From positions 12,179-76,178 of the forward strand of contig JAHJOV010000010.1 of the NCBI GenBank assembly GCA_018820085.1: 64,000 bases of DNA, given 5' to 3'. Each line of letters starts with the position of its first letter. The stretch's first letter is position 1. Origin of the DNA: Patescibacteria group bacterium (GTDB taxonomy: Bacteria; Patescibacteriota; Minisyncoccia; Portnoybacterales; UBA2143). This document shows positions 26,054-29,704 of the stretch, piece after piece. Made by a program: the position numbers and the translations under genes. Under the pieces are notes generated by a model. The model made no database searches, was not told the origin of the DNA, and saw only the letters and a list, made by a program, of their open reading frames with translations.

Positions 26054-26755
26054 ATGAACAAAGCGAAAAAGCCATGTTGTGGCAAATGGGAAGAACCAGA
26101 AAAAACATCTTCCCCAAAAGCCGCGGCAGAAATAAAACAAGAAATTAAAGTGCGATATGACCAATTTGCCAAAGAAGGTGGCTCAGCTGAAGGTTGTTGT
26201 CCTTTGGCCGGAGAAAAAGCTGAAAGTTTTGCTTTAGAACATGGGCTCTATAGCCAAGAGGATCTTGCTTTACTTCCTAAGTTAGCTATTAATCTTTCTC
26301 GAGGTTGTGGCAATCCCACTAGTTTTGCTGATATCCGGCCAGGTGAGGTAGTTGCTGATTTTGGTTGTGGTGGAGGCATTGATCTTGTTTTGGCTGCTCA
26401 TAAGGTAGGACCAACTGGAAAAGTAATAGGAATAGACTTTGCCCCCCAGATGATTGAAAGAGCAAAACAAGTAATGAAAGAAGCTGGCTTATCTGATAGA
26501 GTTGAGTTTATTTTGATGGATATAGAAAATCCACAGGTTCCAGATAATATTGCTGATGAGGCGATCTCTAACTGTGTAATTAATCTCTGTCCCTGTAAGC
26601 CCTGTGTTTACAAACAAATCTTTGATATTCTAAAGCCTGGGGGTCGTCTGGCCATCTCTGATATTGTTACTATAGGAGATGTTGACCGTAAAATTCGGGA
26701 GTACTTTCAGTCAATTTGGTCAGGATGTGTTGGTGGAGCAATAGAGGAGGGATAA
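26054..26755 (+). CDS. arsM: Arsenite S-adenosylmethionine methyltransferase ArsM-family protein
   Basis: ArsM hallmarks: GCGNPTSFADIRPGEVVADFGCGGGIDLVLAAHKVGPTGKVIGIDFAPQM and the conserved cysteine block ISNCVINLCP, then LKPGGRLAISDIV. N-terminal Cys pairs (CCGKW, CCPLAG). Likely start is the ATG at 26054; the ORF track starts at 26027. Confidence 0.7.
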   Translation: MNKAKKPCCGKWEEPEKTSSPKAAAEIKQEIKVRYDQFAKEGGSAEGCCPLAGEKAESFALEHGLYSQEDLALLPKLAINLSRGCGNPTSFADIRPGEVVADFGCGGGIDLVLAAHKVGPTGKVIGIDFAPQMIERAKQVMKEAGLSDRVEFILMDIENPQVPDNIADEAISNCVINLCPCKPCVYKQIFDILKPGGRLAISDIVTIGDVDRKIREYFQSIWSGCVGGAIEEG

Positions 26756-26775
26756 ATAAAAAAATTATTTGGATA

Positions 26776-27543
26776 ATGTTAAACGATAATAAAATGGAAC
26801 CTCAAAAAAATAATTCTGCTAAAGGCAAGACTTCAAAATCCTCTTTAATCTCAGCTATCATTGGAGTGGGTATAGCAATATTTACATTTGTCTGCTGTGG
26901 TCTTTTAATACCACTTGGTCTTATTGGAGCGGCAGTATTCTTACATCAATACAGAATACCTCTTATAATCTTTGGGGTTTTAATGGTTGGAGTAAGTATC
27001 TTTTTTATGTTAAAAGGTAAAGATATAATCTGTATTTGTAAAGTTTTTGACTTGATAAAGAAACATAAAAAATTGACAATTATCTCAACTGGTATTATCA
27101 CCTGTATTAGTTTAGCGATTTTTGCGGTAAGTAATTTTCTTTTCCCTCCAGCTAGAAATTTCACTAGCCCAATTAATCCAGAATCAACTATATTAGAATG
27201 GAGAAACAATAAAGCCGAATCAGAAATAGTGAGGATAGTCAATTTCTTGGAAGGAAATATTGGAAAAGAAATTGAATTGGCCGGAGAGAGGCGTTTAATA
27301 ACTGGTAAAGAGATAATAAGTATTAAGGTAATAATGTTAGAGTGTTGCACAAAAGGTGAATTTAGAGAGATGTTAGAAAACGTTTCTAAGACTGGTAGAG
27401 TTAAGAGTTTTGATTTTAGTAAAAAGGAAATCCTGGCAGAATTACCAGCTGATGAAATACCAAAAATAGCTGATATCTGGAATGTTGAAAGAGTCAGTTT
27501 TGAGTCTAAATCAAGGGAGACCTGGTTGCAATTAATAAAGTAA
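26776..27543 (+). CDS. Membrane protein with vicinal Cys pair in TM1 (FVCCGLL) and soluble C-terminal domain
   Basis: Three N-terminal TM helices, a CC pair inside TM1, and a CIC motif after TM3. Sits inside the arsM cluster. Function not assignable; possibly metal or metalloid handling. Confidence 0.3.
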   Translation: MLNDNKMEPQKNNSAKGKTSKSSLISAIIGVGIAIFTFVCCGLLIPLGLIGAAVFLHQYRIPLIIFGVLMVGVSIFFMLKGKDIICICKVFDLIKKHKKLTIISTGIITCISLAIFAVSNFLFPPARNFTSPINPESTILEWRNNKAESEIVRIVNFLEGNIGKEIELAGERRLITGKEIISIKVIMLECCTKGEFREMLENVSKTGRVKSFDFSKKEILAELPADEIPKIADIWNVERVSFESKSRETWLQLIK

Positions 27544-27608
27544 GATGATAAAATAAAAAAGGAGGACAAAGGTCGAAAAATTAATTTTAATAGAAGAAGC
27601 TAAAAAAT

Positions 27609-27764
27609 ATGGCCAAGCGAATTTGTAAAAAAAGCAATCAAGAAATTGATTTCCCTAAAGATTGCCAAGGATGTGCATCTTTAAATACGAGTAGCGAAAC
27701 CCTATATTGCACTTATAAGAAGACAGAGGGAGAGAAAACATCTAAAAAAAGATGTTGTCATTAA
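27609..27764 (+). CDS. Unannotated Cys-rich micro-ORF (51 aa, 6 Cys ending in CCH)
   Basis: Manual translation gives MAKRICKKSNQEIDFPKDCQGCASLNTSSETLYCTYKKTEGEKTSKKRCCH. Not in the ORF track (below the size cutoff). Weak ribosome-binding site. Confidence 0.25.
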   Translation: MAKRICKKSNQEIDFPKDCQGCASLNTSSETLYCTYKKTEGEKTSKKRCCH

Positions 27765-27791
27765 AGACCTTCTAGATTTGGAAGGATAACC

Positions 27792-28346
27792 ATGATTTAT
27801 GTTTTTACTGGTAATGGTAAGGGTAAAAGTACTGCTGCCATTGGAATGGGAATAAGAGCGGTGGGAGCCGGAAGGAAAGTTTTAATGATCCAATTTTTAA
27901 AGACCAGGGAGTTAACTTCAGAGAATAAAGCGATTGAAAAAGTCGAAGGCTTCAACATTAGAAGTTTTGGGAGAAAAGGGTTTTTCTTGCCAAAATCTGA
28001 GTTAGAGAAAAGGCCAAAATTAAAAAAACAAGGGATAAAACCTTTTTCACAAATAGATTTTAAGTTAGCTAAAGAAGGCTTCGATTTAGCTAAAGAGGTT
28101 GGACAATCTAAAAGGTGCGGTCTTTTGATTTTGGATGAAATTAATTTAGCAACCCATTTTGGATTAATTGATAGAAAAGAAGTTTTAGATTTTCTAAAAA
28201 AATACGGGGAGAAACTAGATATGGTTTTAACCGGTAGACATTGCCCAAAAGAGATTGTTAAAATTGCTGACTTGGTTACTGAAATGAAAGAGGTAAGGCA
28301 TTACTATCGAAGAGGAGTAAAAGCTAAAAAAGGAATCGAATATTGA
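27792..28346 (+). CDS. Cob(I)yrinic acid a,c-diamide / cob(I)alamin adenosyltransferase (CobO/CobA/BtuR family)
   Basis: P-loop-like signature MIYVFTGNGKGKSTAAIGMGIRAVGAGRKVLMIQFLK and size (184 aa) typical of CobA/BtuR. Confidence 0.65.
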   Translation: MIYVFTGNGKGKSTAAIGMGIRAVGAGRKVLMIQFLKTRELTSENKAIEKVEGFNIRSFGRKGFFLPKSELEKRPKLKKQGIKPFSQIDFKLAKEGFDLAKEVGQSKRCGLLILDEINLATHFGLIDRKEVLDFLKKYGEKLDMVLTGRHCPKEIVKIADLVTEMKEVRHYYRRGVKAKKGIEY

Positions 28347-28402
28347 AATTGGCTAAGTTAAAGGTCGAAGTAATTAACATCAAATTAAAAAAGTGAAATA
28401 AA

Positions 28403-29704
28403 ATGGAAAAACTTAATGAACTCAAATTAAAAATCGAAGGAATGAGTTCGCCTTGTTGTGCCGAGGAAATAAAAGGAGATTTGCTAAAAGTTGAAGGGGT
28501 TAAAAAAGTTTCTACTTACTTTGCAGATAAGATTATTAAGGTTGAAATTGATACTGAAAAAGTAACCAAAGAGCAGTTAATTGCCGCTGTGAAAGAAGCA
28601 GGTTATGAGGCTGTGGTTACCGAAGGTAAAGAAAAAATAAAATTTGAACAACAATTAAAAGACCTGGCTGAAAAATATGGTCTATCTTTCCAAGTACTCC
28701 AAGACCACTGGAATTTTGTCAAAGAAGCAAGTGCCAAGGTTTTTGCAGATTGTTGCAAGTGGTGTCATGCCCACCAGATAACCGAAATGGCTGATGCTGA
28801 AGCTTTTTGCAAGAGTGCAATTGCCGAAGGCATGGGAGAGCCTGAAACATCTGAGCAATTGTTCAAAATTAAAAAGAAGGTAGAAGTTTTAACTGATGAT
28901 GAAATTAAGGGCCTAACAGCAGAACGCTACGGCAAGTTTGCTGAAAAATATGCTGAGAAGGGAAACCCTTGTCTTATCAGGAAGAAACAAGTTAAAGAGC
29001 TTTATAAAGAGGAAGAACTTTCTTTAGTTCCAAAGACTGCTCTTAATCTGGCTTTAGGTTGTGGTAACCCGGTTAGTTTTGCCAATCTTAAATCAGGGGA
29101 AATAGTAGTTGATTTTGGCTGTGGAGCCGGCATAGATTTAATTTTGGCTGCTCATAAAGTTGGCCCTGAAGGAAGAGTAATTGGAATAGATCTAACCCCT
29201 CAGATGATCAAGAAAGAAGGGCAGTCAGAGGCTGAGGCTGGTTTTCCAGCGGAAAGGATTGAAGAGCATATTGGTGATATTGAAAAACTCGAGCTTCCTG
29301 ATAATTTAACTGATGTGGTTACCTCCAACTGCGTGATCATTCTGACCCCAAATAAAGAGGCTGCCTACAGAGAAGCTTTTCGGATTTTAAAACCTGGTGG
29401 CAGACTGGCTATTTCCGATATGGTCTTTTCAGAAAAGATAGACCCTCAGATACAAGAACGTTTTCAATCAACTTGGGCAGGGGTAGTCGGAGGAGCCATT
29501 GCCGAAAAAGATTATCTTGAGATAGTCACTAAAGCTGGTTTTGGGCAAATTAATATAGTTAAGCGTCACTTTCTTACCCCAGGGGAATTATTTGCTATGT
29601 CCACTTGTCCCGGAACTGAGTTTGTTCCGGCGCCTGATTCAAAGGATCTTGAAGCTGTTCAAGGCAAAGTGGTCAGTATTAAATTCACAGCAGTTAAACC
29701 TTGA
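28403..29704 (+). CDS. arsM: HMA-like domain fused to ArsM-family arsenite methyltransferase
   Basis: The N-terminal ~75 aa has the heavy-metal-associated fold pattern with SPCC instead of CxxC (LKIEGMSSPCCAEEIKGDLLKVEGVKKV...). Middle Cys cluster DCCKWCH. The C-terminus is ArsM (LGCGNPVSFANLKSGEIVVDFGCGAGIDLILAAHKVGPEGRVIGIDLTPQM, TSNCVIILTP, LKPGGRLAISDMV). Confidence 0.7.
   Translation: MEKLNELKLKIEGMSSPCCAEEIKGDLLKVEGVKKVSTYFADKIIKVEIDTEKVTKEQLIAAVKEAGYEAVVTEGKEKIKFEQQLKDLAEKYGLSFQVLQDHWNFVKEASAKVFADCCKWCHAHQITEMADAEAFCKSAIAEGMGEPETSEQLFKIKKKVEVLTDDEIKGLTAERYGKFAEKYAEKGNPCLIRKKQVKELYKEEELSLVPKTALNLALGCGNPVSFANLKSGEIVVDFGCGAGIDLILAAHKVGPEGRVIGIDLTPQMIKKEGQSEAEAGFPAERIEEHIGDIEKLELPDNLTDVVTSNCVIILTPNKEAAYREAFRILKPGGRLAISDMVFSEKIDPQIQERFQSTWAGVVGGAIAEKDYLEIVTKAGFGQINIVKRHFLTPGELFAMSTCPGTEFVPAPDSKDLEAVQGKVVSIKFTAVKP

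Follow-up and report, generated by a model that had tools for sequence, protein, structure and literature searches.

A cluster of five genes was analyzed in a 64,000-nucleotide stretch (the window) of contig JAHJOV010000010.1 of a Patescibacteria group bacterium (assembly GCA_018820085.1). Three of its open reading frames (ORFs), ORF2, ORF3 and ORF5, constitute a conserved and so far undescribed core in which an enzyme of the ArsM family is combined with mer-type relay logic. Their products are proposed to form a mer-style cysteine relay ending in an ArsM-family methyltransferase dependent on S-adenosylmethionine (SAM), most likely for trivalent arsenicals; the nature of the substrate is inferred, and we regard the chances of the whole proposal as about even. 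All five genes of the initial annotation of this DNA were found, with the motifs quoted for them, as follows:

26054-26755, forward strand: ORF1, 233 amino acids (aa), a methyltransferase of the canonical ArsM type, truncated at its 3' end.
26776-27543, forward strand: ORF2, 255 aa, an apparently MerT-like membrane module of three helices followed by a ferredoxin-fold domain, with FVCCGLL in the first transmembrane helix (TM1).
27609-27764, forward strand: ORF3, a Lys-rich micro-protein of 51 aa with six Cys, ending in RCCH.
27792-28346, forward strand: ORF4, a short-form CobA/CobO/BtuR ATP:corrinoid adenosyltransferase.
28403-29704, forward strand: ORF5, 433 aa, an HMA domain (GMSSPCC), a helical linker and a methyltransferase with the ArsM fold.

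Families were assigned by Pfam and NCBIfam profile searches, and the gathering or curated cut-off is given with each family. In ORF5, the HMA domain (aa 1-73) is followed by the linker (aa ~80-160) and the methyltransferase domain (aa ~165-433). Methyltransf_31 was matched by ORF5 (E=5.7e-28) and by ORF1 (E=3e-28), the SAM-binding motifs are conserved in ORF5, and about 60% identity to canonical ArsMs is retained in its methyltransferase domain. The best NCBIfam match was NF008823, 'arsenite methyltransferase', and the next ones of both proteins were the models for ArsM-type selenoproteins and for arsinothricin or arsenosugar ArsMs, not UbiE. The best sequence matches of the two methyltransferases in the PDB were CmArsM, CrArsM and human AS3MT, with phmmer values against 4KW7/4FR0 (CmArsM) of E=1.4e-22 for ORF5 and E=5.8e-17 for ORF1. 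The AlphaFold2 model of ORF5 (pLDDT 88.6) retrieved 4FR0 (CmArsM), 5EVJ (CrArsM) and 8XT7 (human AS3MT) as the top Foldseek matches, at E about 1e-15. As judged from sequence and fold, both methyltransferases belong to the ArsM/AS3MT lineage, and the initial annotation was right to place them there rather than in a generic UbiE/SmtA clade. Like the ArsM/AS3MT enzymes of solved structure (CmArsM 4FR0/4FS8, CrArsM 5EVJ, AS3MT 8XT7), ORF5 has an N-terminal Cys-bearing segment, and its C190, C220 and C310 are the equivalents of CmArsM Cys44, Cys72 and Cys174 in the alignment to 4FR0/4KW7. Unlike them, it begins with an HMA domain that has an SxCC site and continues into a CC-bearing helical linker.

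The N-terminus of ORF5 matched the HMA family PF00403 with 40.8 bits (cut-off 24.8), and the elements of the AlphaFold2 model (strands 4-12, 33-39, 44-50 and 69-72; helices 17-28 and 56-65) follow the order of the beta-alpha-beta-beta-alpha-beta fold. This domain matched the structures of ATP7B, CopZ and MerP (MerP 1AFI, 1OSD), and also the NCBIfam MerTP and MerA N-terminal models. In ungapped alignments to ATP7B and other solved HMA domains, GM-S-S16-P-C18-C19 lies over GM-T-C-x-x-C, with Ser16 at the first Cys, Cys19 at the second and Cys18 adjoining it. The canonical metal-binding motif GMxCxxC is therefore altered, a Ser standing for its first Cys and a vicinal CC being present instead. 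The check proposed in the initial annotation, whether SPCC is positioned like the CxxC site, was made here by comparing sequence and secondary structure. The motif GMxx[PSA]CC is kept throughout the HMA-fused clade, in which the invariant cysteines correspond to C18, C19, C117, C118, C136 (the last three in the linker) and C190 of ORF5, and the linker module is present twice in some relatives. No description of an HMA-ArsM fusion was found in literature searches. Several relatives of ORF5 from Bacteroidetes and Omnitrophica (P0018-P0022, P0024, P0025) start with a hydrophobic segment resembling a Sec signal, and in some of these both the HMA domain and the CC linker occur twice. Additionally, in loci of the archaeal type and of Omnitrophica (L004 3402-3761, L026 1414-1629, L016 7620-7982), the gene just upstream of that for the HMA-methyltransferase encodes a Cys-rich protein of 71-119 aa (CECQK..GxCKxGxxCF) with no family match.

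ORF2 and ORF3 matched no family of NCBIfam or of Pfam, the latter even at E<=10. For ORF2, the homologues indicate the ATG at 26794 (MEPQ...) as the likelier start; its 47 close relatives, all at least 54% identical, are all annotated as hypothetical and have no Pfam domains. Three transmembrane helices are predicted. The invariant cysteines comprise two in TM1 (C40, C41), one in the loop that follows TM2 (C86) and two in the C-terminal domain (C190, C191), and C88 is nearly invariant. The membrane part looks like MerT in its sequence, with CC40/41 in TM1 and C86xC88 after TM2. The ORF2 profile, run against 1.84 billion proteins, reached P0304 and P0305 in a weak match at E about 5e-4; these two pass the cut-off of the Pfam MerT model PF02411 (36.8 and 50.6 bits) and also match the NCBIfam MerTP and MerT models. 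The hhalign comparison gave 83-86% probability, with both Cys motifs aligned. P0304 is of the type of the MerTP fusions (NF033556) and of the MerT/CopZ-like fusion selenoproteins (NF045683), in which, as in ORF2, a MerT-like transmembrane module is followed by an extracytoplasmic metal-binding domain; unlike in these fusions, the C-terminal domain of ORF2 comes from a different family, and ORF2 matches neither model.

That C-terminal domain is predicted to have a ferredoxin fold, carries the invariant CC190/191 and an ECC motif, and is without a Pfam match. It is probably extracytoplasmic, because Bacteroidetes and Omnitrophica loci, and other relatives too, encode domains of this type as separate proteins that have a signal peptide or lipobox, because one is fused to a c-type cytochrome, and because the Lys/Arg-rich N-terminus and TM2-TM3 loop of ORF2, as read from the sequence, agree with the positive-inside rule. 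In two further loci (L051 3848-4975, L020 ~1160-1700), a MerT-like CC/CxC module is fused to a PspE-like rhodanese domain (CASGKRS), not to the ECC domain. These rhodanese-fused proteins adjoin HMA-methyltransferase genes, and their rhodanese domain is a possible alternative outer capture domain, which would bring in sulfur or thio-arsenic chemistry.

The third component, ORF3, has the pattern MAKRIC...CxxC...C...RCCH, with a vicinal Cys pair at the C-terminus. Its orthologues, 43-51 aa long, start with Met-Ala, have a Cys at position 6, are Lys-rich and end in CC-[H/K/R], the C-terminal CC being invariant; four are exactly 51 aa long despite 24-70% amino-acid divergence. They adjoin ORF2 in loci L004, L008, L014, L018 and L027 and in about 22 metagenome loci, in both domains of life. 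By this comparison of sequences, ORF3 is a real, conserved gene. The tail of ORF3 is tied to the enzyme by a Rosetta-stone fusion: the Woesearchaeota locus L011 has no separate micro-ORF, and its methyltransferase, P0004, itself ends in ...KKEKPCCR.

Together, ORF2, ORF3 and ORF5 form the conserved core of about 60 loci, mostly from the Candidate Phyla Radiation (CPR) and DPANN, and every component of this core has an invariant CC or CxC. The initial annotation had pointed to the HMA fusion, the CC membrane protein and the Cys-rich micro-ORF, all of which proved to be real and conserved; it did not recognise the MerT-like character of ORF2 or the three-gene core. The bacterial order is XRE-ORF2-ORF3-ORF5, also in the lipopolysaccharide-making Gram-negative locus L027, and the order in Nanoarchaeota and Woesearchaeota is ORF5-ORF3-ORF2. 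The cassette is very rare: the ORF2 profile had 19 matches among 1.84 billion protein-cluster representatives, the HMA-linker query found 11 loci among 185,579 species genomes, and 241 million metagenome records yielded 42 further loci, all of which came from a few JGI samples. The gene for ORF2 adjoins that for the HMA-methyltransferase in 23 of these 42 metagenome loci, most of the others being contigs of 1-2 kb that end before the neighbouring gene, and the pairing is kept in nearly all of the longer genome and assembly loci.

Between the copies of the core proteins in CPR bacteria, DPANN archaea and a few Gram-negative lineages, identity is 55-83%, and this level between Patescibacteria and DPANN copies argues for recent transfer across domains. 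The relatives stem from a small number of groundwater metagenomes. Their isolate names (Modern_marine, Undefined_mixed, OS_) agree with the terms used for water types in studies of Äspö deep groundwater (PMC5029217), and these names suggest a link of the relatives to that site. In an arsenic-affected aquifer, arsM was reported in nearly all phyla except Patescibacteria and DPANN (bioRxiv 10.1101/2024.10.03.616553, preprint). ArsM-type genes are accordingly unusual in CPR and DPANN, in keeping with the surprise that the initial annotation expressed at finding them in such a genome. Scans of IMG/VR with both profiles gave no matches and hence no evidence for viral carriage.

The arrangement parallels that of the mer relay, in which the metal passes from MerP to the CC pair of MerT, then to the cytoplasmic Cys pair of MerT, to NmerA (an HMA domain), to the C-terminal CC of MerA and finally to the active site. 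MerA likewise combines an N-terminal HMA domain (NmerA) with a C-terminal vicinal Cys pair (PMC3466566). The shared features are the two Cys pairs of ORF2, CC in TM1 and another following TM2, an extracytoplasmic Cys-bearing ferredoxin-fold domain, an HMA domain at the N-terminus of the end enzyme and a flexible C-terminal vicinal-Cys tail (ORF3 and P0004). The cassette departs from the mer relay in several respects: a methyltransferase takes the place of the flavin disulfide reductase as end enzyme, MerR is absent, the outer domain cannot be recognised as HMA/MerP, the CC tail resides on a separate 51-aa protein, and the HMA site is SxCC and not CxxC.

The relay that we propose would begin outside the cell, where a thiophilic metalloid, most likely As(III) or methylarsenite, would be caught by the CC loop of the ORF2 ferredoxin-fold domain. 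It would then move through the MerT-like module, from the CC pair of TM1 to the CxC pair of the cytoplasmic loop, and be handed over to flexible cytoplasmic CC carriers, namely the Lys-rich ORF3 tail, the HMA SxCC site and the CC of the linker. Methylation would take place at the ArsM-like active site with the equivalents of Cys44, Cys72 and Cys174, a carrier cysteine replacing the missing Cys224 ligand in trans. If this ligand is supplied in trans, the substrate would therefore arrive protein-bound. The family and fold assignments, the conserved cysteines, the gene order, the tail fusion and the indications of topology are observations; from them the direction of transport, the sequence of hand-overs, the substrate and the completion in trans are inferred. 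Arsenic is favoured as the element because the enzyme is of the ArsM lineage, because the direct partner of ORF2 in L038 is a full-length ArsM with four Cys, and because a canonical ArsM is encoded in the same operon as an ORF2 relative in L006 (Bacteroidetes). The CC motif alone does not identify the element, since vicinal Cys pairs also bind arsenicals in ArsI and some ArsR proteins (PMC12607644).

Several results weigh against the proposed relay. All arsenite methyltransferases carry four cysteines, each of which is required for As(III) methylation, and the metalloid site consists of Cys174 and Cys224 (PMC6138428). ORF5 keeps three of the four that define ArsM/AS3MT, with Val361 (codon 29483-29485) at the position of Cys224. 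This position is V, I, G or P in 41 of the 41 scorable members of the HMA clade, versus Cys in 65 canonical ArsM-like neighbours (240-345 aa, typically ~277 aa). The presence of the conserved ArsM cysteines, which the initial assignment implied for both methyltransferases, is consequently true of ORF1, which has all four, and not of ORF5 or of its clade as a whole. Against NF008823 (curated cut-off 263 bits), ORF5 scored 227.1 bits and ORF1 208.6 bits, the latter over profile positions 4-211 of 272, so both lie below the cut-off. The MerT model PF02411 gave no direct match to ORF2, even at E<=10, nor did any model of NCBIfam, and the matches that relate ORF2 to MerT (the E value and hhalign probability given above) are weak. 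The ars operon markers ArsR, ArsB, Acr3 and ArsC were found neither among the ORFs of the island that contains the cluster nor in the related loci examined, the scan having covered only part of the ORFs of the 64-kb window; the mer operon markers MerR and MerA were likewise absent from the island ORFs and the related loci examined. The regulator, where a locus has one, is of the XRE type. Finally, the Sec-signal-like N-terminus of some ORF5 relatives fits poorly with a cytoplasmic SAM enzyme.

Some of these same results are what a mer-like system for another soft metal or metalloid (Hg(II), methylmercury, Sb(III), Bi(III) or Se/Te) would lead one to expect, the loss of Cys224 then reflecting a change of substrate. 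The As-binding Cys is lost clade-wide, ars genes were not found nearby, ORF2 has its MerT-like module, the HMA domain matches MerP 1AFI/1OSD and the NCBIfam MerTP and MerA N-terminal models, and the C-terminal CC tail parallels that of MerA. On the other hand, genes for MerR, MerA and MerB were not found nearby, ORF2 is paired with canonical four-Cys ArsMs in L038 and L006, and the methyltransferase domain has kept its identity to canonical ArsMs. Moreover, SAM is an electrophilic methyl donor and methylation of Hg(II) requires a carbanion donor, which argues against Hg(II) as the substrate. Such a system is considered unlikely.

The initial annotation had taken the cluster for a complete module of As(III) methylation containing two ArsM paralogs. 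This amounts to standard arsenic detoxification by two working enzymes, with thiol chaperones and a link to corrinoid chemistry through the CobO-like gene. The ArsM-family matches of ORF1 and ORF5 and the four cysteines of ORF1 speak for it, but the state of ORF1 and the active site of ORF5 do not. ORF1 carries a PCC tail at its N-terminus, a CC pair, and the motifs GCGNP, SNCV and GCVGG. Its alignment to CmArsM stops at about residue 229, and the protein ends 5 residues past the last of the four Cys. It is 60-64% identical to canonical ArsMs of 277-284 aa and spans just their residues ~3-212. A full-length homologue of 295 aa, 82% identical and with the same N-terminal MKKPCCG tail, is the methyltransferase of metagenome locus L038; compared with it and with canonical ArsMs, ORF1 is without the last ~62 residues, a stretch that in the methyltransferase fold covers the last helix and two strands. 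In a near-identical assembly (GCA_018826345.1), ORF1 is disrupted by a 1-nt deletion in a C6 run, which is either real or an assembly error. Because of the partial coverage of canonical ArsMs and the full-length form in L038, ORF1 is seen, from these alignments, as the 3'-truncated, decaying remnant of a canonical four-Cys ArsM that ancestrally accompanied the cassette. That ORF1 might belong to a naturally short family was rejected; the ArsM-like matches of ~240 aa are short at the N-terminus, not at the C-terminus.

The identity of 51% between ORF1 and ORF5 shows two subfamilies and not recent paralogs. With ORF1 truncated and ORF5 devoid of the Cys224 equivalent, the module of two ArsM paralogs could not be upheld, and standard arsenic detoxification is rather improbable as an account of the cluster. 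In a crude neighbour-joining tree, ORF1 and the L038 protein fell beside a long-branch HMA subclade, despite their higher identity to canonical ArsMs; this placement was taken as a long-branch artefact, and for this reason no donor lineage was drawn. N-terminal CC tails are present on ORF1, the L038 methyltransferase, P0012 and P0138. A zinc-ribbon-like protein of ~50 aa (CxxCG...CCGKxM, with a faint Desulfoferrodoxin_N match) precedes canonical ArsM genes (L006 1336-1488), and such a segment is sometimes fused to the N-terminus of a canonical ArsM (proteins P0087 and P0119 being listed with this observation). In the micro-ORF of L014 (~2500-2640), the zinc-ribbon-like motif is combined with a C-terminal CC-Arg tail.

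The corrinoid part of standard detoxification depends on ORF4, which is a genuine member of CobA_CobO_BtuR (PF02572, 187.6 bits, cut-off 25.7) and not a kinase; the initial annotation was right to assign it to the CobO family. Like Salmonella CobA (1G5R/4HUT), it has the P-loop GNGKGKST and the C-terminal motif. Unlike CobA, it is a short form whose central region is unaligned, and it remains below the cut-offs of TIGR00708 (150.5 bits, cut-off 167.75) and NF004637; it starts at CobA residue ~30 and so is without about 30 N-terminal residues, the corrinoid-covering segment. Among the cassette loci, ORF4 is found in the lineage of the window alone (L001-3, L028). In L059, a locus with the archaeal-type gene order, the HMA-methyltransferase gene is directly preceded by a divergent CobO-like gene (2-376) with 36% identity to ORF4; after this second, independent neighbour was found, the idea of ORF4 as a pure one-off was dropped.

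The nearest CPR relatives of ORF4, 65-71% identical, are not linked to methyltransferases but are encoded directly downstream of a class II (NrdJ-type) ribonucleotide reductase, beside DUF4430 and DUF6580, in a neighbourhood that also includes B12-binding-type genes. In two CPR contigs (L023 2115-10231, L024 2272-7618), the order is an intein-containing class II ribonucleotide reductase, a short CobO, DUF4430 and DUF6580, which looks like a compact module of B12 uptake, adenosylation and use. Since its closest relatives sit beside this reductase, ORF4 would serve B12 salvage for NrdJ, and it is most likely hitch-hiking B12-salvage cargo, specific to the lineage and outside the conserved core. 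A functional link between CobO and methylation, at which the initial annotation had hinted from the proximity of the genes, is weak and unlikely; it was downgraded and kept under consideration because of the second CobO-like neighbour in L059.

That second neighbour also enters a more radical reading, which we consider a long shot. Here, the cluster would not be an arsenic system, and mer-type capture and relay would feed an end enzyme that methylates another soft metal or metalloid, for example Sb(III), Bi(III) or a species of Se or Te. Taken to its extreme, this reading has Hg(II) as the substrate; the cluster would then provide a way to methylmercury without HgcAB in anoxic deep groundwater, and the CobO-like gene, recruited twice, would serve a corrinoid methyl carrier. 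In a milder version, the enzyme would be an ArsM dependent on a carrier protein, the CC tail of the 51-aa protein completing its active site in trans.

It is very improbable that the substrate is a thiol or the micro-protein itself, as in protein or peptide S-methylation or in a modification like that of ribosomally synthesised and post-translationally modified peptides. The short Cys-rich ORF3 is always encoded beside the enzyme, and the enzyme lacks one metalloid ligand, as such a role would have it; but the tail fused to the C-terminus of the enzyme in P0004 suits a swinging arm over a substrate that is turned over, no protease, exporter or leader-like features were seen, and the HMA domain and the MerT-like partner indicate metal handling.

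Regarding its genomic context, the cluster is part of an island, and a GC-rich hairpin directly follows ORF5. The following features were located around it:

24188-24264: tRNA-Arg(tct), overlapped by the 3' end of the recombinase gene.
24223-25719, reverse strand: large serine recombinase with Resolvase, Recombinase and Zn_ribbon_recom domains.
25751-25871: left repeat block, a cassette boundary, an inverted copy of 24259-24357 and of 29768-29876.
29735-29765, forward strand: GC-rich hairpin (arms cccgcgcc / ggcgcggg), directly 3' of the ORF5 stop codon.
29768-29876: right repeat block, a cassette boundary.

The hairpin (RNA fold -20.8 kcal/mol, z = -3.1, with a weak U-tract) is probably the end of the operon; it was not picked up by the consensus terminator scan, and the consensus promoter and terminator scan did no better than shuffled sequence. 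Inverted repeats (25751-25823 versus 29768-29876, 86-92% complementary) bracket the cluster, and the recombinase gene lies between the arms of a perfect 99-nt inverted repeat (24259-24357 / 25773-25871, 100% complementary). The continuation of the left block (25864-25959) is inverted relative to 34342-34436. If 34342-34436 is joined to 24259-24357, the two overlapping by 8 nt, the reverse complement corresponds to the whole of 25751-25959; this last block could be an attP-like junction kept in the island, or belong to an invertible recombinase segment just upstream of the cassette.

In other assemblies the contig breaks exactly at the repeats, and the GC content is raised in parts of 24-35 kb. 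A homologous recombinase was found beside the cassette in L008, L009 and L040, and in L008 and L009 (another CPR-like contig) it is accompanied by retron-type reverse transcriptase and helix-turn-helix genes around the cassette. The cassette is the cargo of an integrative, horizontally mobile element; the horizontal acquisition within a repeat-bounded island that the initial annotation had put forward is supported by the inverted repeats, the tRNA-Arg, the serine recombinase, the raised GC content and the homologous flanks. That this cargo is non-functional and decaying is extremely unlikely, for although ORF1 is truncated and, in one assembly, frameshifted, ORF2, ORF3 and ORF5 are intact, with 55-83% identity across bacteria and archaea and with invariant Cys and SAM-binding motifs.

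Within 30011-32791 of the window, a retron-type reverse transcriptase (PADLOC RT_II-A, 139.8 bits; NCBIfam retron St85, 127 bits, below the cut-off) is encoded next to an RmuC-like protein that gave the PADLOC match 'RTasRmuC' (98.9 bits); the pair may be a defence module on the same island. A reverse transcriptase 58% identical to it comes after the cassette in L008 and L009. Rfam detected two tRNAs and nothing else in 22-37 kb, and no retron non-coding RNA family.

In the cassette, transfer between domains is clearly seen among ultra-small cells, which are usually without ars genes. Because the active site departs from ArsM in one of its defining cysteines, the substrate becomes a testable question, and the clade-wide loss of Cys224 makes this question, and that of the mechanism, a sharp one. 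Arsenic methylation is usually seen as a reaction of one enzyme fed by glutathione-bound As(III). If the proposed relay is true, its dedicated importer, carrier tail and HMA-fused methyltransferase would make up a substrate-channelling pathway, the first to be proposed for an enzyme of the ArsM family, and the principle of the mer design, importing a toxic metal in order to detoxify it, would be extended to methylation.

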